Below, piece after piece: positions 7,410 through 18,215 of a stretch of 62,530 bases of DNA (position 1 is the first letter of the stretch; each line of letters begins with the position of its first letter). The DNA is taken from the NCBI GenBank assembly GCA_964475485.1, contig CAYYWY010000012.1:1-62530 (forward strand), written 5' to 3'. Position numbers and translations under genes: made by a program. Below the pieces are notes generated by a model. That model saw nothing but the letters and a program-made list of their open reading frames with translations. It ran no database searches and was not told the DNA's origin. The stretch is from an uncultured Nitrospiraceae bacterium (lineage in GTDB: Bacteria; Nitrospirota; Thermodesulfovibrionia; Thermodesulfovibrionales; UBA9159).

Positions 7410-7909
7410 TTCCCGGTGAAAAGGGCGATGGTCATGGTGATATCGAGGAGTTCCGGTTTCTCGAAGGATCTTCTTATCGTCACCCTTTTAACAGAAAGGA
7501 TCATCGGGGCTTCATTTATCCGGTAAAACATGTTCACCAGCTCATTGAGCGTGAGTTTTTCCATCTGGACTTCGGCGCTCTCCTCCGCCATTGAGCCATG
7601 GATCTCCCTGTTGCCAACGGCCTTTACCGACTTCATCTTTCCCTTTATGCCAAGGGAAGATAGCAATGTATCCATCGCATCGGCAATTCCGCGCGTCTGT
7701 ATAATAGCGGACCTCTTCTCGACGGAATCGACGTTGTCTCTCAATGATCTGTATTCGCTGATCAGAGAGGACAATTCCTTCTTCTTAGCCCTGAGAGTAT
7801 CGAGCTCTTTTTTAGCCGACCTCTGCAAAAGGAGGGAAGGGATCAGAAGGATGAAGAGACCGAGGATTACGGAGGCAAGAGCTATGTTGGGGCGGCAACG
7901 AAGCATCAT
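7406..7909 (-). CDS. gspM: Type II secretion protein M
   Basis: TM, coiled coil and ferredoxin-like C-terminus; position after gspL. Confidence 0.75.
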   Translation of the reverse strand: MMLRCRPNIALASVILGLFILLIPSLLLQRSAKKELDTLRAKKKELSSLISEYRSLRDNVDSVEKRSAIIQTRGIADAMDTLLSSLGIKGKMKSVKAVGNREIHGSMAEESAEVQMEKLTLNELVNMFYRINEAPMILSVKRVTIRRSFEKPELLDITMTIALFTGK

Positions 7910-9003
7910 CTCTTCCCTTTCGCCACTATTGTGAAGAGGGTCTTTCCCCCGGCGGACGGTTTTATATCGGAAACGGATACATCCATGATTACGCCGGAGA
8001 GCCCTGTCCTTACCTTATCGATGTCGCTCATAGAAGAGGCCTCACCCTTCATTGTTATAAGGTCTCTGTCGAGGCTTATTTCGGCAAAGGCAATCCCGGT
8101 CGATGTCTTTTGTGAGAGGTCGAGGAGGAACTGGAGAGGATAGACGCCGATCATGGCATCTCCCTTCTCTTTGATAGCTTTCATGTGTGATTTCATCTGA
8201 TACACTTCATCAGCCACTGTCCTTTCATTGGGGAAAAGCCCGGAGTACATGTTCCGCAGCTCTCTCTTAAGTGAAGAGGCCTCATGTTTTGCGGTTACAG
8301 TGCCGAATGCAAGGTATGCGTGGACAAATAATGCCAGCGCAGTGGAAAGAACCGCAGTCAGTCTCAGTGTCTTTTTGACCTTTTCCATACCCTTTGTATA
8401 GGCGAAAGACCCCGTCCTCAAATTAATAGTGCGAGCCGAGAGTTCGGCGCCGGCAGCGCTTATCCTCTCTTCAGGCGTGAGTTCGCCGGGGTGAAGAAGC
8501 CTGAGGGCGATGTCTTCGGCTCCTCCCCTCGCAATCGTTCGAAGCTCAATAGATGTGACGGCCACGGGGTCTATCTGACGGCTGGACAGCCGGTCAAGCG
8601 TTTCTCTCAACAGATTCTTTTCGACATATGCCACCAGGACGTCGAATGCATCGCCTGAGCCGCCCAGCACTACGGCATCGAAGACAACGTTCTCCGCACT
8701 TCCCATGAGGAGATTCGAGAGTTCAAGGGGGATCACTCTCAGGAGCTTTTCCCTATCGGAGAAGGGGAGTTTCAGGACTCTGAAGTTCAGCAGCTCCACA
8801 GGGAGGCTGAGGATGTACTCGCCGACACCGGGCGAATTCAGGGAAGATGCGTCAAAGCCGTCGTACTTGATAACCTTCTCGAATGTGTAGGTTCCTGCCC
8901 GGCCGTTGAACACATAAACACTCCCCGTGAGCGAGTTGCCGGCTCCTTTAACGAGGTCAATGAATCCTATTTTACCCACTGTCGATCTCTGTAAATCGTC
9001 CAA
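7906..9003 (-). CDS. gspL: Type II secretion protein L
   Basis: Actin-like cytoplasmic part (FRVLKLPF), INLRTG motif, TM, PilN-like periplasmic domain. Confidence 0.8.
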   Translation of the reverse strand: MDDLQRSTVGKIGFIDLVKGAGNSLTGSVYVFNGRAGTYTFEKVIKYDGFDASSLNSPGVGEYILSLPVELLNFRVLKLPFSDREKLLRVIPLELSNLLMGSAENVVFDAVVLGGSGDAFDVLVAYVEKNLLRETLDRLSSRQIDPVAVTSIELRTIARGGAEDIALRLLHPGELTPEERISAAGAELSARTINLRTGSFAYTKGMEKVKKTLRLTAVLSTALALFVHAYLAFGTVTAKHEASSLKRELRNMYSGLFPNERTVADEVYQMKSHMKAIKEKGDAMIGVYPLQFLLDLSQKTSTGIAFAEISLDRDLITMKGEASSMSDIDKVRTGLSGVIMDVSVSDIKPSAGGKTLFTIVAKGKR

Positions 9004-9016
9004 TCGATCATGAGCG

Positions 9017-9946
9017 TTACATCTCCCTCCAATACCGTATCAAATTGGTGACGCCCTCAACAGTAACCACAGTTTCGATCGCTCTTTTCATCTTGTTTTC
9101 CTCGGAGACAGAGATAATACGGAAGTTTCTTGGAGGCGTTATCTGTCCTGCAAATATCCTGCTGCTTATGTTGTTGATCAGATCCTTGCTGAAGCCAGCC
9201 CTCTCCAGATCACCCTTGCCCTCAAAAGGCCTCAGCTTCCTCTGATTCACGACCTCTCTTGCCTGTTCCATAGATATTGATTCACTAAGTGACATTATAA
9301 CAGGTATTGAAGCGGTATTAATATTGACTCGTAAGTCTTCGCTTCCACCGTAGCCGTACACAGTAACATGTGGAGATAACGCCTCATATGTCTGAAGACC
9401 GATGCCTTTTATATGTAGCAATTCGTCAACACTGTCCATAAAAGCGTTCTTTGTGGTTTCCTTAGAGGAAATCAGCGCGGGTACGCTATCCTTGTTTATC
9501 CAAAAAGAAACTCTGTCTGCAATGCTTTCATCAAGTCCAAGGTTGCGGAGAAGCCTTCTAAATGCTTGGATATTACCCGGGGTTTTAAGGGAATTCATAT
9601 TGAATTTCCCGTTTTCGTCTTCTACGCTGACGACAACGGTACCGGAGAAGCCCTCAAGGATATTCTCTACAGGGATCACCATCTTCCCGGGGAATTTGTG
9701 AAGTTCATCCGAAGGGATGTCGGAGATGGTTGTGATCGCAAGAGAGACGCCTGATTTTGCGGCGAAAGAGAGTCTCAGCGAGTCCTTCCAGTTATAAAGG
9801 GCGGAGGTCGTCGTATATACTCCATAGGCGAATTCCACGACCATGGCGGTGATAAGAGTAAGGATCATGAGTGTCAGCACCAGCGCCATGCCTTTCTCTG
9901 AAGATGCATGAAGCGTGAAGCGTGAAGCGTGTAAGGAGCCCCTCAC
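9017..9946 (-). CDS. gspK: Minor pseudopilin K
   Basis: KG|MALVL cleavage site, DENGKFNMN, ELLHIKGI and NINTAS helix-hairpin motifs. Confidence 0.92.
   Translation of the reverse strand: MRGSLHASRFTLHASSEKGMALVLTLMILTLITAMVVEFAYGVYTTTSALYNWKDSLRLSFAAKSGVSLAITTISDIPSDELHKFPGKMVIPVENILEGFSGTVVVSVEDENGKFNMNSLKTPGNIQAFRRLLRNLGLDESIADRVSFWINKDSVPALISSKETTKNAFMDSVDELLHIKGIGLQTYEALSPHVTVYGYGGSEDLRVNINTASIPVIMSLSESISMEQAREVVNQRKLRPFEGKGDLERAGFSKDLINNISSRIFAGQITPPRNFRIISVSEENKMKRAIETVVTVEGVTNLIRYWREM
9909..9929. repeat. Heptamer tandem repeat (TGAAGCG)x3 in the gspK leader
   Basis: Read directly from sequence. Confidence 0.9.
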
Positions 9947-10584
9947 AACGCCTTCCCTATCCTGGGCCTCGCGATTTCCATGACGGCAAGATGGCTGCTC
10001 TCCTCCTTCGCCGCGACCTTGAGCGTGACCCTTATCTCGCCGGGCATTTTCTTTGACATGTCGCTATCCCATGTCTTTATCCATTTGCCGTTGTAGCCTG
10101 CCTCGATGGTGAAAGATTCAAGACCCTTCATCAATTCGAAGTCTTTTGTCCCGGAAGATTCGCCGTATGCGGTCTCCATCTTTTTCTTAAGCACAAGACT
10201 TCCTTCATTTTCTTCGACGGTGTATGATATCCTCGAAAGTCCGGGAGGCAAGGGCGTAAACGAGGTAAAAAGGAGTTGGGAGGCCTGCTTCCCGTAAAAA
10301 TCCCTGTCCTCGAGCTTAAAGACGGTATGCGTCTTTTCCGGGTTGTAGAGCGCGGATTCGAGCTCTCTCTTCAGGGTATCCAGAACAGACCGGCATTCCT
10401 GAAGTTTCAGGAGGGAATCGTCCACCGCATCCGCTGCCCTTTGTGAAAGGAAGAAGGTGCTGTAAAGAGCGGCGATCACCACGGCGGTTATTGCAACGGC
10501 AACGAGAACCTCGAGGAGCGTAAAGCCACGCACAGTGTCGAGAGTTGAGTGTCGAGTGTCGAGTGAAGTGTCTTTACTTTTCAC
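9943..10584 (-). CDS. gspJ: Minor pseudopilin J
   Basis: RG|FTLLEVLVA prepilin motif; gene order. Confidence 0.9.
   Translation of the reverse strand: MKSKDTSLDTRHSTLDTVRGFTLLEVLVAVAITAVVIAALYSTFFLSQRAADAVDDSLLKLQECRSVLDTLKRELESALYNPEKTHTVFKLEDRDFYGKQASQLLFTSFTPLPPGLSRISYTVEENEGSLVLKKKMETAYGESSGTKDFELMKGLESFTIEAGYNGKWIKTWDSDMSKKMPGEIRVTLKVAAKEESSHLAVMEIARPRIGKAL
10535..10562. repeat. Heptamer repeat GTGTCGA x4 (one degenerate) in the gspJ leader
   Basis: GTGTCGA GAGTTGA GTGTCGA GTGTCGA. Confidence 0.85.
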
Positions 10585-10597
10585 CTGAAGATACCTC

Positions 10598-10798
10598 TAT
10601 CCGTCATTGCGGCTTGTCCGCAATCCTTCCGACTTGTTCGGAACCGGAAGAAAGATTCTCGATGCGAGTCCCGAAGCGGGTCTCCGCGAAGGGTCGCTCC
10701 GACTTCGCTGAGAGTCGCTTCGACCCGGCAGGCCTGCCTACCGGACAGGCAGGCGGGAATGACAGTTTGTGTCGCCTTACTAATGACCGTATTAGTAA
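10598..10798. mobile_element. Composite REP/MITE-like element between gspI and gspJ
   Basis: TATCCGTCATTGCGG-CTTGT-CCGCAAT hairpin, nested GCCTGCCT-N7-AGGCAGGC (10732-10754), GGGAATGACAG end, and terminal palindrome TTACTAAT-N6-ATTAGTAA. Confidence 0.7.
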
Positions 10799-10803
10799 CA
10801 TCA

Positions 10804-11229
10804 TCATTTCTGTTTTCTGATAAGTTCAGAAAGCCTGACGCTTTCTTTGCCGTCAGAGACGGTCACCGATATCTCGGACATGCCTGGAAAGGAAGAATCC
10901 CTGACGGCAGTCTCATAGGAGAAGCTGGAATACGGTTCAGGGAACTGCCCCTTATCGGTCACCGGCTTCCTCTCCATTGCATACATTTTTTCCTTTGCGA
11001 GGCTTGCGGATGTGGTGATGATCCTGTGCCTTTCCGCAATTCCGAGGTGATAGTTCAAGGTGTATATCAGAGTGACAAGAAGTCCGCCCACTATAGCAAG
11101 GCTTATCATGACTTCGAGGAGGGTAAAGCCCCTCTTCGCAGTGACGCGTGACGCGTGATGCGTGACGTGTAAGAGAAATCTTCCCTTCCGGGCCTTGCAT
11201 TTCTTAATCATCAACTTGTCACTTGTCAC
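10804..11229 (-). CDS. gspI: Minor pseudopilin I
   Basis: RG|FTLLEVMISL prepilin motif; short; gene order. Confidence 0.9.
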   Translation of the reverse strand: MTSDKLMIKKCKARKGRFLLHVTHHASRVTAKRGFTLLEVMISLAIVGGLLVTLIYTLNYHLGIAERHRIITTSASLAKEKMYAMERKPVTDKGQFPEPYSSFSYETAVRDSSFPGMSEISVTVSDGKESVRLSELIRKQK

Positions 11230-11236
11230 TTGTCAC
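11141..11236. repeat. Inverted pair of heptamer arrays in the gspI leader and gspH end
   Basis: GTGACGC-type x4 at 11141-11168 and TTGTCAC x3 at 11216-11236. Confidence 0.9.
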
Positions 11237-11728
11237 TACCTTCACCCTTCCGCTCATATTGTTGAAGACGACCGACATATCCGCCTTATCATCCTTAAGG
11301 CGCACGGTGAAACTCTCCGATGCCCCAAACGGGCTGAAGAAGATAATGACCTCGCCATCGGAAACCATCCCCCTGGACTGTAGTTCTATTCCTGAAAGGG
11401 AATCGAATTTCTCGGACTTTTCTCCCTCAGGACTGTTGTAGCTTATGAGCCTGTCGCTGAAAACGGCCTTCATTTGAAGGGTCTCTTTCGTGGATATCGC
11501 ACTGTCGTTCAGATACCGGATTATGGAGCCAAGGCGTTTTGCATCGGATTTCAGTCTGCTCTCCCCGATCCCGGTAAAGGATGGGAGGGCGACCGCAAAC
11601 ACAAGGGAGACGATAAAGATCACGACCATCAATTCGAAAAGGGTGAAACCCGCGCGAGTAACGAGTAACGAGTAACGAGTAACGAGTGCCAATTCCTTAC
11701 CCTTGCTTTTCAACCTGTTACCCGTCAC
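11219..11728 (-). CDS. gspH: Minor pseudopilin H
   Basis: AG|FTLFELMVV prepilin motif; gene order. Confidence 0.88.
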   Translation of the reverse strand: MTGNRLKSKGKELALVTRYSLLVTRAGFTLFELMVVIFIVSLVFAVALPSFTGIGESRLKSDAKRLGSIIRYLNDSAISTKETLQMKAVFSDRLISYNSPEGEKSEKFDSLSGIELQSRGMVSDGEVIIFFSPFGASESFTVRLKDDKADMSVVFNNMSGRVKVVTSDK

Positions 11729-11735
11729 TTGTCAC
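11655..11735. repeat. Inverted pair of heptamer arrays in the gspH leader
   Basis: CGAGTAA x4 perfect at 11655-11682 and CTGTTAC CCGTCAC TTGTCAC at 11715-11735. Confidence 0.9.
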
Positions 11736-12241
11736 TGCCTTTGCATGTCCCAGCTCTTGATGTCTGCGTCCTTTCCCTCCCCGCCTTCCTTGCCGTCCGC
11801 GCCATAGCTCAGGATGTCGTAGTCCCCGTTCAGTCCTGGAGATACGTAAATATAAGGATTGCCCCACGGGTCTGTCGGGATCTTCTTCTGTTCCAGGTAT
11901 CCGCCTTCCTTGTAGTTCTGCGGCAACCGTCCGCTCGCCGGCTTTTCCACGAGGGCCTGAAGACCCTGCTGGGTATCGGGATAAAACCCGTTGTCCATCT
12001 TGAAAAGTTTGAGGGCCGTCTCGAAATTCCTTATCTGTACCTTCGCCTCCGCAATCCTTGCGTCATCCGTCCTGCCTATAATCCTCGGAGCCACGATTGC
12101 CGCGAGAAGACTCAGGATGAAGACGACGACAAGGATCTCAAGAAGGGTGAAGCCGCCACTCCCCTTGAATTCCCCCCTTGCCGAGGGGAAATATAGAGGT
12201 GTAGTTTTTGAATTTTTCATTTTGAATTTTGCATCTTGCAT
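11732..12241 (-). CDS. gspG: Major pseudopilin G
   Basis: GG|FTLLEILVV, GLQALVEKP, DPWGNPY, SYGADG motifs. Confidence 0.97.
   Translation of the reverse strand: MQDAKFKMKNSKTTPLYFPSARGEFKGSGGFTLLEILVVVFILSLLAAIVAPRIIGRTDDARIAEAKVQIRNFETALKLFKMDNGFYPDTQQGLQALVEKPASGRLPQNYKEGGYLEQKKIPTDPWGNPYIYVSPGLNGDYDILSYGADGKEGGEGKDADIKSWDMQRQ
12161..12241. repeat. CCCC/GGGG palindrome plus five heptamer units in the gspG leader
   Basis: Hairpin at 12161-12201; TTTGAAT TTTTCAT TTTGAAT TTTGCAT CTTGCAT at 12207-12241. Confidence 0.8.
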
Positions 12242-12265
12242 CTATTTAACCTCCGCTATCATTTA

Positions 12266-13441
12266 TCACTTTATCAACTGATTCAACTGGAACATCGGCA
12301 GCAGGACCGCAAGGACGATGAAAAGCACCACAAGCCCCATCACCAGTATCATGACAGGCTCGAAAAGGGAAACCGCGCCGTTCACCTTCCTGTTGAATTC
12401 CTCCTCATAGGACTGGGCTGCCCTGCTCAGGGTTTCGGGAAGCCTTCCGCTTTTCTCCCCGGTTGCGATGAGCCGAAGAAAGACCGGCGGAAAGCCTTCA
12501 AGCGTGGAAGAAAGGCTCTGACCCTCGGCTACTCTTCTCTCCGCATTCAGGACAGATTGCTCAAGCACCATGTTACCCATGGATTTTGCCGAAAGGCTCA
12601 ACGCCCTGAGCATGGGGAGCCCTCCCTCAAGAAGGAAACCGAGGTTCCTTGCGAAACGGTAGTAGTAGAGACTCTGGACCATGTTGCCCGGGAGTTTCAG
12701 AAGAATCCGGTCAACAAAAAGTCTGTGAGAAGTAAAGAGCTTCCTTAGTGATATCACTGCTCCGCCGGCAAGGCCCGCCAAAACCCACCAATAATTGACA
12801 AAGACATTGCTCACGATTATGAGGAATTGAGTGATGAGAGGCAGCGTTGCCTTTGTATCGTGGAAGATCTTCACGATCTTCGGGATTACGAAGGTGAAGA
12901 GAAAGGAGAGGATTACAATACTCACGCCCATCATTAGAGCAGGATATATCATGGATGAGCGCACCCTGGCTCTGACGGTATTCCGGCCTTCGAGAAAGTC
13001 TGCAAGTCTCATGAGGACCCTGTCCAGAGTACCGCTCTGCTCGCCGGAATGGACCATATTGATATAGAACTCCGGGAAGACGCGGCCAAAATCCTCCAGG
13101 GCCTTGGAAAGGCTGGAACCTCCTGCGACCTTTTCCTTTATCGCAATCAGCATCTCCATGTAAAAGCCCCTTCTCTCGGCAGACAGAGACTGGAGGGCGT
13201 CCATCAAGGGAACTCCTGATGAGAGGAGTATCGAAAGCTGCCGGGTCATGCCAGGGAGGAAGGATTCTTCAGTCCTCTGAAAAAGCCTTTTCTTTCCTGT
13301 TATCCTGGACTCGATGACCTCACTTGGGAAGACGCCCTCCGCCCTGACCCTGAGCATCGCGTCGTTCATGCCCGATGCCTCGATACTGCCGCTCACATCC
13401 CTGCCGTCTGCAGTGTATCCTCTATATCTGAATATCGGCAT
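12266..13441 (-). CDS. gspF: Type II secretion inner membrane platform protein F
   Basis: RQLSILLSSGVPL, SGEQSGTL, YP, GEKSGRL, EP duplicated T2SSF motifs. Confidence 0.96.
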   Translation of the reverse strand: MPIFRYRGYTADGRDVSGSIEASGMNDAMLRVRAEGVFPSEVIESRITGKKRLFQRTEESFLPGMTRQLSILLSSGVPLMDALQSLSAERRGFYMEMLIAIKEKVAGGSSLSKALEDFGRVFPEFYINMVHSGEQSGTLDRVLMRLADFLEGRNTVRARVRSSMIYPALMMGVSIVILSFLFTFVIPKIVKIFHDTKATLPLITQFLIIVSNVFVNYWWVLAGLAGGAVISLRKLFTSHRLFVDRILLKLPGNMVQSLYYYRFARNLGFLLEGGLPMLRALSLSAKSMGNMVLEQSVLNAERRVAEGQSLSSTLEGFPPVFLRLIATGEKSGRLPETLSRAAQSYEEEFNRKVNGAVSLFEPVMILVMGLVVLFIVLAVLLPMFQLNQLIK

Positions 13442-13574: not shown

Positions 13575-15134
13575 TTATTCGGCATAGTCCTTCTGCGTAA
13601 CCCTCAAAACCTCCTGGAGCGTGGTCTCTCCCTTCATCACCTTGTTAAGGCCGTCCGCGTAGAGGGTCTTCATGCCCCTTGAGGCCGCATGATCCTTGAT
13701 CGCCTGCGAATCCCTCCGGGAAGTGATCATCTCTCTAATCTCGGGACCTATATGGAGAAGCTCGAATATACCGGTCCTGCCAAGGTAGCCGCTCTGTCTG
13801 CAGCGGTCGCATCCCTTGCCGCGGTACAGCTTACTCCCCTTTGCTTCCCTGCCTGGCAAGGGGGGATTAATGAGGGTGGAGCTGATGAGGTAAGACCTTT
13901 CTGAATCGGGCGTTTCATATGTCTCTTTGCAGTAAGGGCAAATAGTCCTCACGAGTCTCTGTGCAAGGACGGCAACCAGAGACGATGCGACAAGGAAGGG
14001 TTCGACTCCCATATCGATAAGTCTTGTGACTGCGGAGGCGGAGTCATTGGTGTGCAGGGTGCTGAGCACGAGATGGCCTGTGAGGGATGCCTGAATAGCG
14101 ATCTCCGCCGTCTCGTAATCCCTTATCTCGCCCACCATGATCACGTCCGGGTCCTGCCTCAGAATCGACCTCAGTCCGGAAGCAAAAGTGAGACCTATTT
14201 TCGGATTCACATGGATCTGGCCCACGCCCCTGAGCTGATACTCGACAGGGTCCTCAACTGTTATGATGTTCTTTTCTTCCGTGTGTATCCTGTTCAGGGC
14301 TGCATAGAGAGTCGTTGTTTTGCCGCTTCCCGTGGGACCAGTAACGAGGATGATACCATTAGTCCTGGCGAGAAGTTCCTCAACACGCCTTATATCTTTT
14401 TCGTCAAGCCCGACCTCGTTAAGGCCTATCAGCCCCTGTTGCCTGTCCAGCAGCCTAAGAACAGCCCTTTCACCGAAAGAGGTGGGTACGATGGAAACCC
14501 TGATATCGATATCCTTCGTCCCGATGAGAAGCCGTATGCGGCCATCCTGGGGAAGCCTCTTTTCCGCGATATCCAGGTTTGCCATAATCTTCACTCTGCT
14601 TATGAGGGCGTCCTGAATGATTTTGGGAGGGGAGAGGACCCTGTGGAGGAGCCCGTCTATCCTCATTCTCACTTCCAGTTCCTTCTCGTAAGGTTCGATA
14701 TGGATATCGCTGGCCTTTTCCTTCACCGCCTGAAGGAGAAGGGCGTTGAGAAGCCGGATGATAGGGGCCTCTTCAGTGAGTTCAAGGAGGTCTCTGGGGG
14801 ATTCGAATTCCGTGGCGACCGCTGTGAGATCTTCCCCTGATATCCCTTCCATCACCTCCTCGGCGGAACCCAGATGACCATAAAACTTGTTGATCGCGTC
14901 CAGGACGATCCCCGGAAGAGCCTTCAGGGGTTGAGGTTTCAGACCGTATCTCTTTGCGAGGTCAAGCACGGCAAAGAGGCCCTTCTCATCGGCAACAGCA
15001 GCGATGAGGGAGCCGTCAGCCCTTTTCAAGGGCATGACAAGATTGTTCCTGGCAAAGGAAAGGGGAATTTCCTTTATGAGGGGGGTCTCTACATCCTCAT
15101 CCCGTATGGCATGAATTGTCTCCAAATCGTACAT
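13575..15134 (-). CDS. gspE: Type II secretion ATPase E
   Basis: ASDIHIEP, RLPQDGR, Walker A GPTGSGKTTT, RQDPDVIMVGEIRD, tetracysteine motif. Confidence 0.97.
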   Translation of the reverse strand: MYDLETIHAIRDEDVETPLIKEIPLSFARNNLVMPLKRADGSLIAAVADEKGLFAVLDLAKRYGLKPQPLKALPGIVLDAINKFYGHLGSAEEVMEGISGEDLTAVATEFESPRDLLELTEEAPIIRLLNALLLQAVKEKASDIHIEPYEKELEVRMRIDGLLHRVLSPPKIIQDALISRVKIMANLDIAEKRLPQDGRIRLLIGTKDIDIRVSIVPTSFGERAVLRLLDRQQGLIGLNEVGLDEKDIRRVEELLARTNGIILVTGPTGSGKTTTLYAALNRIHTEEKNIITVEDPVEYQLRGVGQIHVNPKIGLTFASGLRSILRQDPDVIMVGEIRDYETAEIAIQASLTGHLVLSTLHTNDSASAVTRLIDMGVEPFLVASSLVAVLAQRLVRTICPYCKETYETPDSERSYLISSTLINPPLPGREAKGSKLYRGKGCDRCRQSGYLGRTGIFELLHIGPEIREMITSRRDSQAIKDHAASRGMKTLYADGLNKVMKGETTLQEVLRVTQKDYAE

Positions 15135-15154: not shown

Positions 15155-17314
15155 TTATTCCGAAGGCTTCAGCCTTATCTTGTAGTTCGGTTCAGCGTAC
15201 TGGACCTCCTCCATGGCAGAGAACTCCCTTACCGCGTCCCGAACGTCCTGTCCTTTCATGAGCCGTATGTGATATGCCTTGATTCCCTCCATGTAGGTGA
15301 TTACCGATCCGCCCGTCCTATTGATCAGCTTCCTCGCAGTATCGTCGGCGACCCCTTCTTTGAATTTCACGATAAGCTCGCCTTCGGCAAAACGGTTTTC
15401 ACTCATGCCGAACTCCTTCTGCTTTGTGTTCGTTATCTGTGCGAGGCGGTCCGATTCCTTGACGATATGGGGATTGAGGAAGACGAGGAGGTTTGTTTTC
15501 TTCTTCGAAACGCTCTTGTTCTTGAACAGATATCCCAGAAGAGGGATGTCGCCCAGCACAGGAACCTTTGTAACGTTCTCCTCTTCCGTCTCCTGCATCA
15601 GGCCTCCGATCACGACTATCTGGTTGTCCTTCACTACCACGGATGTCTTCGTGGAGCGCTTTGTGGTCGAAGGGCCGACATTGATTACGATAGTCTCCGA
15701 CTCCCTCTTCAATGAGGAGATCTCCTGATAGATGTCGAGCTTCACGTAATCCCCTTCGGTGATCTGGGGAGTGATCCTGAGCGTGATCCCGACGTCCTTT
15801 CTTTCGATGGAATTGAGGACCGTGTTGGCCGTAGTGATGTCCCTTTCACGCTTCGATATGAAAGGCACGTTCTCACCCACCACAATCTCAGCCTCCTTGT
15901 TGTCGGAGGTGAGTATCTGTGGCGTCGAGAGTACATTCACCACATCCCTGAATTCGTTCAGACTGAAAAGGGCGGCAAAGCCGGGCACCGTGAGGGTAGT
16001 GCTGACAGCCCTTCCGTCACTTGTGACCGTCGTCAGTGGCACATCGAGAAAATTCCCCATTCCGCCGAGGGTGACTCCTTCGAGACCGGTGATTACGGAC
16101 TGAAGCGCGGCAGAATCCATCGTACCGAACCCCCCTATGGCAACAGGCTCCCCGTTCTTTCTTCCGATGAGTCTCCATTTTGCTCCCAGTTCCCTCAGTT
16201 TGTCGATTGTTGCCTCAACGATCATCGCCTCAACGTACACCTGCCTTCTCCTCTTGTCCAGCTGTTTTATGACCTGCAGGAGGTTGTAGTAATCGGCAGG
16301 TGAGGCCACGATAACGAGTGCATTGGATGACTTGTCGGCTGTGATGTGTATCCCGCCGACTGCTTCAAAAGGAGTGACAGGAGCTGTTCCCGGCGCAGGT
16401 TGCTGCGGCCTCGCACCCTTCACAATGCCTTCAAGAACCTTTGCGAGTTCGGATGCATCTGCGTTTTCGAGGAAAAAGACGTTGATCCTCCCAAGGGCTT
16501 CAGGAGAGGGGATATCGATAAGGGAAATGAGGGATTTCATGGATTCCCGTGCTCCTTTGTCTCCGAAAAGGACGACGGCGTTCAGCCTCTGATCGGCCAC
16601 TGCCTTTATCTCATCCGAGGCGACCGGCTGGGGAGCGCCCCTGGCCCTGCGGCTCATGCCTTCATTAAGCATCTTTGCAAGTGCGTCTGCGCTGGAATAC
16701 TTAAGGAAGACGATCTCAGGGCCTTCCCTCATGGAGGGCTGGTCGATACTCTCCACTATGGAGAGTATCTTCTCTATGTTCAGCCCGGAGTCTATCACGA
16801 GAAGAAGGTTTCCCGGGCCAAAGGCGGAGGCATATCCGTCCTTTGAAACGATCGGCTGCAGGAATTTAAGGGCATCGTCGGAGGAGATATTCTTCAGAGG
16901 GATGAGTCTCACGATGTAACTCTCGTTTACAGGCTGCCTGTCCTTAGCTATTTCGAGCCCCCTCTGCTTCGCCTCGGCAGTGGGAATAATCTTGTACGCA
17001 TCGACACCAGAGGGAACCACCGTGAACCCCTTTAATTCAAGGACGGAAGTGAAAAGATTGTACGCCTCATCGATGCTCAGCTTTGATGGTGCGATGATCG
17101 TGATCTTCCCTTTTACGCGCTCGTCGAAGATGAAATTCTTCTTAGTAATGTCGCTTATGAATTTTGTGATGGTGGGAAGGTCGACATCCACAAAGTTGAA
17201 CGTCACCTTCTCTGTCTTCCTGGCATCGGGTTTCATCTCGGGAAATGAGGATGCCGCGGATATGAAAACGAAAATCAGAGAGACGCAGAAGGAAAAACGT
17301 TTAAGGTTCCTCAT
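15155..17314 (-). CDS. gspD: Type II secretion secretin D with an extra C-terminal domain
   Basis: N0-N3 domains, QVYVEAMIVE, DVGITLRITP, KVPVLGDIPLLGYLFK; about 78 extra C-terminal residues. Confidence 0.96.
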   Translation of the reverse strand: MRNLKRFSFCVSLIFVFISAASSFPEMKPDARKTEKVTFNFVDVDLPTITKFISDITKKNFIFDERVKGKITIIAPSKLSIDEAYNLFTSVLELKGFTVVPSGVDAYKIIPTAEAKQRGLEIAKDRQPVNESYIVRLIPLKNISSDDALKFLQPIVSKDGYASAFGPGNLLLVIDSGLNIEKILSIVESIDQPSMREGPEIVFLKYSSADALAKMLNEGMSRRARGAPQPVASDEIKAVADQRLNAVVLFGDKGARESMKSLISLIDIPSPEALGRINVFFLENADASELAKVLEGIVKGARPQQPAPGTAPVTPFEAVGGIHITADKSSNALVIVASPADYYNLLQVIKQLDKRRRQVYVEAMIVEATIDKLRELGAKWRLIGRKNGEPVAIGGFGTMDSAALQSVITGLEGVTLGGMGNFLDVPLTTVTSDGRAVSTTLTVPGFAALFSLNEFRDVVNVLSTPQILTSDNKEAEIVVGENVPFISKRERDITTANTVLNSIERKDVGITLRITPQITEGDYVKLDIYQEISSLKRESETIVINVGPSTTKRSTKTSVVVKDNQIVVIGGLMQETEEENVTKVPVLGDIPLLGYLFKNKSVSKKKTNLLVFLNPHIVKESDRLAQITNTKQKEFGMSENRFAEGELIVKFKEGVADDTARKLINRTGGSVITYMEGIKAYHIRLMKGQDVRDAVREFSAMEEVQYAEPNYKIRLKPSE

Positions 17315-17345: not shown

Positions 17346-18215
17346 TCATCTGATCTGGTATGTCATGGTCATCCTCGAACCGCCTCTCAGAAGGTCGACC
17401 TGGACCCTGTCCATTCCCCTGAGTGCAGTAAACGCCTGGAGGGCGTTCTCTGGATTCGAGATATTATACTCATTTATGCGCAAAAGGACATCTCCGTTCT
17501 GGAGTCCAAGGCTCTGATAAATACCGCCGCTCTTTACCTCACGGAGGATGAAGCCTTCCTGTTTGCCGTTAACAAGGTTGGGCTGGAGCCTTGCGTCCGT
17601 CATAAGCTGATTGGGGTTTTCCAGCGCATGGAGTATCCTCTTCTGGTCGAGGATAAAAAGTCCGCTTCCTGCGCTCCTTGCAAAAGCAGATCCGCTCGCC
17701 TCGGCCTCCCTGGGATTCAGCTCCTTTATTGTGAGCATTTCTGCCAGCGGAATCCTTATCTCCCTGCCGCCTTCTGTTATGACAGCCCTGTCCTTTTCGA
17801 CTCTCTTCAATTTCCCGGCACCAAAGACCGACTCGCCGATTCTGAACACCTCCTGTTTGCCAGCCTTGTCTGCAAATATGGCATAACTGAAAACAGGAGG
17901 TCCGGCGATGGTGCCCACGAGCGTAATGTCTGAGTGTGATACCGCTCCTTCCCTCGTTACAGAGAGTTCCTTCAACTCTCCACCGGGAAATCCAAAGGGA
18001 TTGCTTTTAAGGATGCTGGCGTATTCCTGGAGCCCCATCTTCACCTTTCGGGTGCTGGCCTGAGCGGGTGGGGAGGGTCTTTCTGTTCTCCTCAGAGAGT
18101 GGGAGAGGATGTCCCGGATGAAGATGAGGATGACGATAGTCAATAAAAGGGCGATAATCACATTAAGGGTAACAGGCAGTCCGGGATACCTGTATATGAA
18201 ATCTGTCCTGTCCAT
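17346..18215 (-). CDS. gspC: Type II secretion protein C with PDZ domain
   Basis: TM, HR domain (LVGTI...AIF), PDZ (LGLQNGDVLLRIN). Confidence 0.92.
   Translation of the reverse strand: MDRTDFIYRYPGLPVTLNVIIALLLTIVILIFIRDILSHSLRRTERPSPPAQASTRKVKMGLQEYASILKSNPFGFPGGELKELSVTREGAVSHSDITLVGTIAGPPVFSYAIFADKAGKQEVFRIGESVFGAGKLKRVEKDRAVITEGGREIRIPLAEMLTIKELNPREAEASGSAFARSAGSGLFILDQKRILHALENPNQLMTDARLQPNLVNGKQEGFILREVKSGGIYQSLGLQNGDVLLRINEYNISNPENALQAFTALRGMDRVQVDLLRGGSRMTMTYQIR

Follow-up and report, generated by a model that had tools for sequence, protein, structure and literature searches.

Heptanucleotide repeat arrays in the pseudopilin leaders of a type II secretion operon of an uncultured Nitrospirota bacterium

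Pseudopilin genes and their arrays

The window analysed here is the whole of contig CAYYWY010000012.1 (62,530 nucleotides (nt); C12 in our numbering), one of the 76 contigs that make up the 2.6 Mb genome (G000) of an uncultured Nitrospiraceae bacterium. Its minus strand carries a type II secretion system (T2SS) operon, assigned by Pfam, in which five pseudopilin genes stand in tandem: gspG, encoding the major pseudopilin (11732-12241; T2SSG, 3.5e-42, and N_methyl), a gspH-like gene (11219-11728; N_methyl), a gspI-like gene (10804-11229; N_methyl), gspJ (9943-10584; N_methyl and T2SSJ) and gspK (9017-9946; T2SSK_1st and T2SSK). Here, we found that the leader region of each of these genes holds one or two arrays of tandem heptanucleotide repeats, with a different unit in each of the five leaders, and that T2SS pseudopilin leaders are the strongest hot spot of this repeat class across the order.

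Tandem Repeats Finder (TRF) called six arrays of period 7, with 3.3-5.1 copies, between 9909 and 12241 of the window: TGAAGCG in gspK (9909-9931; 3.3 copies, 100% matches), AGTGTCG in gspJ (10534-10565; 4.6 copies, 84%), GTGACGC (11141-11167; 3.9 copies, 90%) and ACTTGTC (11214-11237; 3.4 copies, 100%) as the right and left arms of gspI, CGAGTAA as the right arm of gspH (11655-11687; 4.7 copies, 100%) and TTTTGCA in gspG (12206-12241; 5.1 copies, 79%). The left arm of gspH, three units with a GTRAC core (GTGACAA GTGACGG GTAACAG, 11715-11735), was read from the sequence and not called by TRF. Period 7 accounts for 8 of the 29 TRF rows of the window, the two outside the cluster having 2.3 copies each; TRF called no period-7 array of at least 3 copies elsewhere in the window and none in the mature coding parts of gspG-K. 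A preliminary description of this DNA had claimed a heptamer repeat in all five leaders and none in the mature regions, and both statements agree with the TRF output. It had also placed every repeat between the start and the cleavage glycine, which is correct except for the arrays at 11214-11237 and 11715-11735, since these overlap the stop codons of gspH and gspG, respectively.

The surroundings are those of a T2SS. On the same strand lie gspC (17346-18215), gspD (15155-17314), gspE (13575-15134), gspF (12266-13441) and a GspL-like gene (7906-9003), all recognised by Pfam. PF07963 scores above its cut-off in GspG, GspH, GspI and GspJ, and T2SSG, T2SSJ and T2SSK domains are present. The methylation motif G↓F-T-L-x-E (the arrow marking the cleavage site) is followed by a hydrophobic helix; GspK has G↓M/I/F-A-L-V and no Glu5. 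The genome contains a single prepilin peptidase, a Peptidase_A24 gene on contig C1 (65193-65528, 74.5 bits). GspD carries an unusual appendage, its residues 630-710 giving a C-terminal match to the Fervidolysin N-terminal prodomain family (PF22148, 2.5e-16).

Start codons, leaders and junction hairpins

The longest open reading frames (ORFs) give leaders of 30, 27, 34, 20 and 19 amino acids (aa) for gspG to gspK, as the preliminary description had stated. In gspG, the Gly-1 codon lies at 12154-12152 and GGAGG stands 8 nt ahead of ATG 12241, the start that gives the 30-aa leader; the sole other in-frame start would leave 23 aa as a minimum. Its array reads ATGCAAG ATGCAAA ATTCAAA ATGAAAA ATTCAAA in the sense direction, the first unit sits on the start codon itself, and a paired arm is not present in this genome. 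In gspH, with its Gly-1 codon at 11650-11648, the candidate starts GTG 11728, TTG 11713 and TTG 11692 (the last with AAGGG 7 nt upstream) give leaders of 27, 22 and 15 aa, and even the shortest contains the whole perfect right array (sense CTCGTTA, 4.7 copies), which encodes LVTRYSLLVTR and ends 5 nt before the Gly codon. The GTRAC units upstream contain the gspG stop TGA (11734-11732), and the 27-nt loop that follows them carries AAGGG/AAGGA together with TTG 11692.

A similar arrangement is found at gspI, where the Gly-1 codon lies at 11130-11128. The left array (sense GTGACAA, 3.4 copies) encodes the GspH C-terminus VVTSDK and contains the gspH stop TGA (11221-11219), the 46-nt loop holds ATG 11211, 7 nt past that stop, and the right array (sense CGTCACG, 3.9 copies) encodes HVTHHASRVT, with 11 nt left between its end and the Gly codon; the leader measures 28-34 aa. 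The gspK array (sense CACGCTT, 3.3 copies) is perfect and solo and encodes HASRFTLH. Its gene starts at GTG 9946, which shares bases with the gspJ stop (GTGA) and follows GGGAAGG at a distance of 4 nt; the Gly-1 codon at 9892-9890 (EKG↓MALVLTL) sets a 19-aa leader for which no alternative in-frame start exists. The GspK cleavage context, ..KG↓(M/I/F)ALVLTL with a leader of at least 6 aa, is kept in 30 of the 30 orthologues found. gspJ has two candidate starts before its Gly-1 codon (10527-10525), namely GTG 10584 (GAGG, 9-nt spacer; 20-aa leader) and GTG 10533, which opens the sequence GTG-CGT-GGC directly after the array and would leave a leader of only 3 aa (MRG↓F). The solo gspJ array (sense CACTCGA, 4.6 copies) encodes SLDTRHSTLDT and abuts GTG 10533.

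Thus, minimum leaders of gspG to gspK are 23, 15, 28, 3 and 19 aa, which as a set do not match the short leaders (below about 10 aa) of the type IVa class, and all five leaders have a net positive charge. Distant orthologues have leaders of 3-9 aa. No ATG, GTG or TTG lies between array and Gly codon in gspG, gspH, gspI or gspK, and therefore the arrays of these four genes are, judged from the sequence, most likely translated and then cleaved off with the leader, while that of gspJ may be untranslated. A start downstream of the repeats, which the preliminary description had named as a finding that would speak against it, is thus absent from four genes and possible in one. Could the arrays nevertheless be untranslated throughout, with true starts downstream and leaders of normal length? 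The gspJ GTG 10533 would fit, an MRG leader is forced in one relative (L064), and a start at or after the last unit occurs in 12 of the 55 array-bearing genes of relatives introduced below (for example TTG-AAT-TCC..., giving MNSR..G↓F). We regard this as very improbable, because the minimum leaders of the other four genes are fixed by the lack of such a start, gspG, gspH, gspJ and gspK have a Shine-Dalgarno-like (SD-like) motif ahead of their upstream starts, the putative downstream starts lack an SD motif and lie in or against the array, and in 43 of the 55 related genes ATG, GTG and TTG are all missing from the last unit onwards.

Long leaders as such are not foreign to type IV filaments. 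Berry and Pelicic 2015 (PMC4471445), in their treatment of prepilin leaders, describe class III leaders as 6-26 aa long, located in the cytoplasm and removed by cleavage after Gly-1. Leaders of type IVb pilins and Flp in that account resemble those found here in their 15-30 aa length, terminal Gly, hydrophilic and basic character, cytoplasmic location and removal by an A24 peptidase. The long leaders of type IVb and Tad pilins are not presented there as repeat-encoded, whereas here type IVa-like T2SS pseudopilins owe their leader length to heptamer arrays.

The array pairs of gspH (11715-11735 with 11655-11687) and gspI (11214-11237 with 11141-11167) form hairpins, with RNA folding z-scores of -4.4 and -3.3 and 0 of 200 shuffled sequences folding as well. 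The inverted arrays had been expected to fold back on each other, and folding supports this for both pairs. The solo arrays of gspG, gspJ and gspK lie outside array-paired hairpins (z = -2.2, +1.0 and -1.0), the gspG value stemming from an unrelated small hairpin. Adjacent arrays are complementary at 5 or more of 7 positions in 9 of 15 pairs in this genome and in 18 of 26 pairs in relatives, compared with about 18-20% of random pairs.

These junctions suggest another role, in which the arrays are selected intercistronic RNA elements and the arrays or hairpins at cistron starts control translation or mRNA processing. Such elements could sequester a start until the upstream ribosome arrives, provide RNase III-type cleavage sites or protect 3' ends, and would thereby fix how much GspG is made relative to the minor pseudopilins. 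The strong folds of the gspH and gspI junctions, with the upstream stop in the left arm and an SD-like motif and start in the loop, would suit such a function, as would arms that stay complementary in relatives though the units differ between genomes, the restriction of arrays to operonic T2SS pseudopilins with solo pilin genes spared, and the persistence of one array (gspH) across genera. We consider this explanation unlikely, since three of the five arrays are solo and non-folding, arrays occur in only 55 of 362 related genes and are lacking altogether in 7 of 14 loci of the same family, so that the operon works without them, units and lengths vary from gene to gene, and the same class of repeat is found inside enzymes, where such a role would not apply.

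The closest precedent for a start-proximal function comes from MacGregor 2015 (PMC4679880), where TAACTGA direct repeats of 2-6 copies are described in marine Beggiatoaceae, Cyanobacteria and Bacteroidetes, and where post-transcriptional control is proposed for the heptamers directly upstream of Beggiatoaceae starts. Like our arrays, these are forward heptamer direct repeats close to a functional start, immediately upstream of it and often overlapping the end of the upstream ORF; the sections of that paper on their placement report no pattern by gene function. The TAACTGA repeat is, however, a single unit with stop codons that, in the cases treated there, is almost always untranslated and ends about 1 nt before the start codon, whereas here the units lack sense-strand stops, vary between genes and are apparently translated, and the arrays finish 4-20 nt short of the Gly codon. 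A placement of the TAACTGA type fits gspJ only if GTG 10533 is its start, and does not fit gspG, gspH, gspI or gspK.

A genome-wide class with a hot spot in prepilin leaders

The arrays of the window belong to a genome-wide class. With a threshold of at least 3 copies, TRF called 113 rows of period 7 in the genome, compared with 38 of period 6 and 10 of period 8, an over-representation like that of the long simple-sequence repeats (LSSR) and the short tandemly repeated repetitive (STRR) sequences of other bacteria. The 113 rows merge to 108 arrays on 47 of the 76 contigs. By a crude gene caller of our own, which called 2466 genes at 89% coverage, ORF interiors hold 47 of the arrays, 5' ends (first 150 nt) 26 and 3' ends 6, and the other 29 are intergenic. 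ORFs remain open across the arrays, and the interior ones encode seven-residue repeats such as NSSLVTRHSSL, EVRSQKSEVRS and SKFKVQSSKF within recognisable proteins. Indeed, Pfam domains flank or span the in-frame arrays of CarB (C3:12978-13005), a class-III aminotransferase (C19:50730-50760), a Zn-dependent dehydrogenase (Zn-ADH; C4:78322-78351) and YchF (C10:20254-20284), which encode inserts of the NSSLVT(R/H)HSS type. For 82 of the 108 arrays the unit is stop-free on one strand only, compared with 36% of random genomic heptamers.

The cyanobacterial STRR sequences are heptanucleotide LSSRs. Dispersed heptamers of this kind were described by Rehm et al. 2015 (PMC4692102), whose account covers GGGAATC in Xanthomonas and GGGGA(C/T)T in Nostoc, often as convergent pairs near ORF ends. 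The class found here shares with them the few-copy tandem 7-nt units at tens to hundreds of sites per genome and the convergent stem-loop pairs, often 0-50 bp from ORF ends and overlapping stop codons. In that account, the Xanthomonas and Nostoc repeats consist of one or few units that are mostly intergenic, G-rich and quadruplex-forming, whereas we found 70 canonical unit classes among the 108 arrays, 79 of the 108 in ORFs and only 29 intergenic, no G-rich unit, and a marked preference for prepilin leaders.

A unit whose length is not a multiple of three, placed at the 5' coding end of genes for an envelope machine, recalls the heptanucleotide simple-sequence repeats (SSRs) that drive phase variation of Haemophilus hmw and E. 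coli neuO, which likewise are non-triplet tandem units in or near the 5' end of envelope-structure genes. The preliminary description had accordingly proposed 7-bp slippage as a frameshift switch or tuner, in which one unit gained or lost would turn each pilus subunit on or off, and the perfection of two arrays (100% matches) might be cited for it. We judge this extremely improbable, and the data obtained lend it no support. Whereas hmw and neuO have long tracts that are polymorphic between cells and strains, the arrays here have 3.3-5.1 copies; housekeeping genes, CarB and YchF among them, contain in-frame arrays of the same class; and the gspH array has an equal unit count, without a gap, in another genus (G012). 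Independent switching of five essential subunits of one machine would have no obvious use. Furthermore, all 55 array genes of relatives keep an in-frame start upstream, which is a weak test.

Only runs from two hot-spring metagenomes of one study gave good coverage of the stretch, and no RNA run was among those containing the locus. In runs X1 and X2 most of the stretch is represented by short contigs that break at or near the arrays, and these show no indels over five whole arrays and most of the gspH array, at the level of contigs, where minority variants are invisible. Run X4 represents a diverged relative whose leader regions do not align. A flank-gap-flank pattern over the gspH array had no match in a collection of metagenome contigs, and 75% identity was the upper limit of what a GspH protein scan returned. 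On the CGAGTAA array (11655-11688), contigs of runs X1-X3 that have unrelated flanks stack up to a summed depth of about 70, compared with about 5 alongside, so that this unit would be common in those communities, at many loci or in many organisms, and assemblies are interrupted at it.

No other 2.5 kb of the genome is as dense in arrays as the window operon, which has six where the runner-up has four. Leader intervals of prepilin genes contain 7 arrays against 0.065 expected from 108 in 2.6 Mb, so that chance is excluded (Poisson P about 9e-13, computed for 13 prepilin genes where the count is 12, namely 10 N_methyl and two GspK-type genes). A TRF-called array in the 5' zone is found in 6 of these 12 prepilin-type genes and in 18 of the other approximately 2450 genes (Fisher P = 1.2e-9, with cells of 6/13 and 20/2453), and by eye 8 of the 12 carry an array. 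An equal density of heptamer arrays at all gene starts, which the preliminary description had said would count against it, is thus not what was found.

The count by eye includes a second T2SS-like operon (C18:28991-36474, L237), which encodes GspE, GspF, three pseudopilins, a GspK-like protein and a PilM/PilN-like fusion. All three pseudopilin leaders there contain heptamer hairpins, one called by TRF and two degenerate ones seen by eye, and one leader begins with the ATGCAAG... unit family of the window gspG. No array was found in the GspK-like gene of this operon, in the two PilA-like genes on C38 or in the solo GspG paralogue on C11.

Leaders of prepilins are not the only N-termini affected. 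Scored with a Kyte-Doolittle sliding window, an N-terminal hydrophobic segment is present in 16 of the 24 genes with 5' arrays, compared with 30% of all genes (odds ratio 4.7, P = 4e-4), and in 10 of 18 after removal of the prepilins (P = 0.035), which fits a tolerance of cleaved or cytoplasmic N-terminal extensions. At several loci the N-region or h-region of a Sec or lipoprotein signal peptide contains an array or closely follows one (C1:165914, C2:112040, C3:26227/26331, C3:81792, C4:52493, C8:3611, C8:23701 and C30:19817), and one TolB-like signal peptide is flanked by an opposed array pair. Heptamer arrays also lie on C2 at 26-27 kb.

Is the leader hot spot of this operon a common feature of related genomes? 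The relatives with taxon names are metagenome-assembled genomes (MAGs) of Nitrospirota and Thermodesulfovibrionales. In a set of 80 T2SS loci (519 kb) from Nitrospirota, Thermodesulfovibrionales and neighbouring lineages, TRF called 105 period-7 rows of at least 3 copies and at most 12 rows of any other period. These merge to 103 arrays, 72 of which lie no more than 120 nt upstream of a prepilin Gly codon, in intervals that make up 8.6% of the sequence (GspK-type sites counted). Thus, the comparison of orthologous leaders proposed in the preliminary description shows that the hot spot recurs. Arrays are carried by 55 of 362 prepilin-type genes, in 30 loci, the distance from array end to Gly codon being 4-20 nt in 42 of the 55. 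Since 26 of the 31 arrays outside leaders fall in the same 30 loci, leader colonisation tracks general array activity. In a set of 40 relatives' loci, leaders are long in the window's own family and, in distant families, mostly canonical (for example MSNNRG↓F, MRQRG↓F and MKRG↓F); in 14 loci of this family, 11 of 56 genes carry arrays and 7 loci carry none.

Units vary between genomes (AATTCAA, AATGCAA, ACTCGTC, AAGGATG/CTTCATC, CTGCGAA, TCAGAAG and others), which suggests that many of the events were separate, though kin are not independent. Within an operon, a single hairpin family is often common to several leaders (G001, L105, L109, L044), and the gspG leaders of G001 and G003 begin with the unit family of the window gspG. 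The gspH array is orthologous in the genus of G012, where the alignment is gapless with an equal unit count and substitutions only, and a related ACTCGTC array occupies the gspH position in a metagenome contig. In the G012 locus, a 320-nt spacer separates gspG and gspH (L048:820-1143), and within it the stretch immediately before the gspH array can be aligned to the final codons of the window gspG, as if the junction had been duplicated or split by an insertion.

Origin and tolerance of the arrays

How did the arrays arise? The preliminary description had proposed a repeat-depositing element of the kind that carries a small four-helix-bundle gene. In such a scheme, a small mobile element, either a four-helix-bundle "23S IVS protein" cassette (IVS, intervening sequence) or a small-nuclease element, would insert at or beside the Gly-Phe-Thr codons and leave heptamer arms behind after loss of its gene. 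Array ends 4-20 nt from the Gly codon, a limited and shared unit repertoire and the single hairpin families spread over several leaders of an operon would be expected from it. We searched the whole genome for PF05635 and obtained a single match below the cut-off (C1:93091-93303, 29.2 bits compared with 33.8), with no array beside it: the nearest arrays on that contig lie at positions 10.9 kb and 156.7 kb, about 60 kb or more from the match. ORFs read by eye revealed no inserted small gene in the long spacers that separate gspG from gspH in the set of 40 loci; in the genome and the 80 loci, intervals of 100-1200 nt between inverted arrays yielded only pseudopilin genes and one Cas2-like ORF. 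The four-helix-bundle cassette was rejected on these grounds.

A copy-paste element was likewise rejected. The five leader elements matched the rest of the genome (blastn-short) through their arrays only and not through loops or flanks, the gspH unit CGAGTAA being found on 5 other contigs; many copies of one defined element with internal sequence, as expected of MITEs (miniature inverted-repeat transposable elements) or Rickettsia palindromic elements (RPEs), were therefore not seen among them. Target-site duplications are at control level, with a best 40-nt flank match of 5.04 against 5.00 for 93 elements of this genome and of 5.39 against 5.13 for 76 elements of relatives. Unique loops and flanks, the lack of flank repeats and the lack of a small gene argue against a transposon-like cassette, as do the five different units within one operon, and we regard a targeted mobile cassette as decidedly unlikely. 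The Cas2-like ORF lies in a groundwater Nitrospirae MAG (L105:120-621), upstream of the T2SS operon; it encodes 93 aa, is bracketed by inverted TTGAATC/ATTCAAG arrays and looks like Cas2 by its N-terminal motif.

On balance, we favour the reading that the six arrays of the window are members of a lineage-wide heptanucleotide class that has accumulated in a tolerated leader sink. We propose that this class, often in opposed hairpin-forming pairs, is active in this Thermodesulfovibrionales-type Nitrospirota genome, that its arrays arise locally and without a carrier element, by slippage and, for the opposed arm, template switching, and that they survive only where stop-free, mostly basic peptide inserts with a period of seven residues are harmless. 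The prepilin leader would be the most permissive of such places, as it is cytoplasmic, variable in length and removed after Gly-1 by the single prepilin peptidase, and the five tandem, tightly coupled and presumably low-expression pseudopilin genes would offer five adjacent sinks. The arrays would thus come to occupy the space from the stop of the upstream gene to the last 2-6 codons before the cleavage Gly, be read through as leaders of 15-34 aa and then be discarded; most arrays in leaders are probably translated as such disposable extensions. The idea of a neutral coding space, put forward in the preliminary description, is supported by these data, as the class is genome-wide and in frame and has its strongest hot spot in the cleaved cytoplasmic leader of prepilins.

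Several observations weigh against a sink of this kind as a complete explanation. First, other permissive sites are seldom used: arrays are present in none of the three GspG2- or PilA-like genes of this genome, and only about 10 of some 740 genes with a hydrophobic N-terminus are struck. The main operon aside, 18 genomes of the family offer 98 prepilin sites; arrays occur at 7 of these, all of them in FTLLE-type pseudopilins of secondary clusters, and at 0 of about 17 GspG2-like and about 18 PilA-like leaders (classes read from a table); permissiveness alone is therefore insufficient to account for the specificity, and we suggest low expression and an operonic, translationally coupled setting as additional factors. 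Second, the unit-for-unit conservation of the gspH array in another genus is a long persistence for neutral DNA. Third, 250 leaders without a TRF row show a self-match at lag 7 that is no higher than at lag 6 or 8, so that the long leaders of sister genera cannot be presented as decayed arrays. Finally, the gene calls and start sites are our own crude ones, and 18 canonical unit classes are common to this genome (70) and the loci of relatives (54) out of 1172 possible, where our arithmetic gives about 3 with composition bias not controlled; such a shared repertoire fits a sequence-directed process better than plain slippage.

We therefore also consider a bolder scenario, in which leader ends are the preferred site of a sequence-directed process that deposits or homogenises heptamers in Thermodesulfovibrionales and their neighbours, with the hairpins coupling or dosing the translation of pilus subunits. 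It draws on the limited and shared units, on arms that stay complementary despite unit change and on arrays that stop 4-20 nt before the Gly codon. We think it quite unlikely; if true, it would connect the assembly of type IV filaments with a repeat-generating activity in a way not yet described.

The favoured reading, that of a tolerated sink, has parallels in other repeat classes. RPEs are defined elements of about 100-150 bp with a conserved sequence, fused in frame into ORFs. Like RPE and MITE repeats, the arrays described here are hairpin-forming, selfish-looking DNA tolerated in frame in loops or termini of working proteins; unlike RPEs, they share only the 7-nt periodicity and the unit repertoire, with unique loops and flanks and no target-site duplications. 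One would generally expect a repeat with a unit not divisible by three either to be kept out of coding sequence or to work as a switch. In the present case, such units appear to be read through at scale, and the prepilin leader would be the clearest case because the cell cuts that peptide off anyway. MacGregor (PMC4679880), citing Mrazek, notes in the part of the paper concerned with SSR length classes that heptamers are the commonest long SSR and that units divisible by three dominate coding DNA. In the limited literature covered, our search on repeats in prepilin leaders returned no paper.

The hot spot could serve as a natural assay for the limits on leader length and sequence in type IV filament subunits, and as a well-defined locus in which to seek, 35 years after the description of STRR sequences, the process by which heptamer arrays are made and their opposed arms stay complementary. 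The arrays also call for caution in annotation, as gene callers will mis-start such pseudopilin genes or call them atypical.

The neighbourhood of the arrays contains a further repeat class. An Rfam search of positions 9000-13000 gave no family match apart from one chance-level hit. The spacer between gspI and gspJ (10585-10803, 219 nt) consists of several small stacked palindromes and, judged from the spacing of Gly codons, is lacking in close relatives. Pieces of it recur on seven other contigs (C63, C9, C6, C10, C26, C13 and C2; blastn-short), and it thus represents a second dispersed repeat class, similar to repetitive extragenic palindromic (REP) sequences and distinct from the heptamers.

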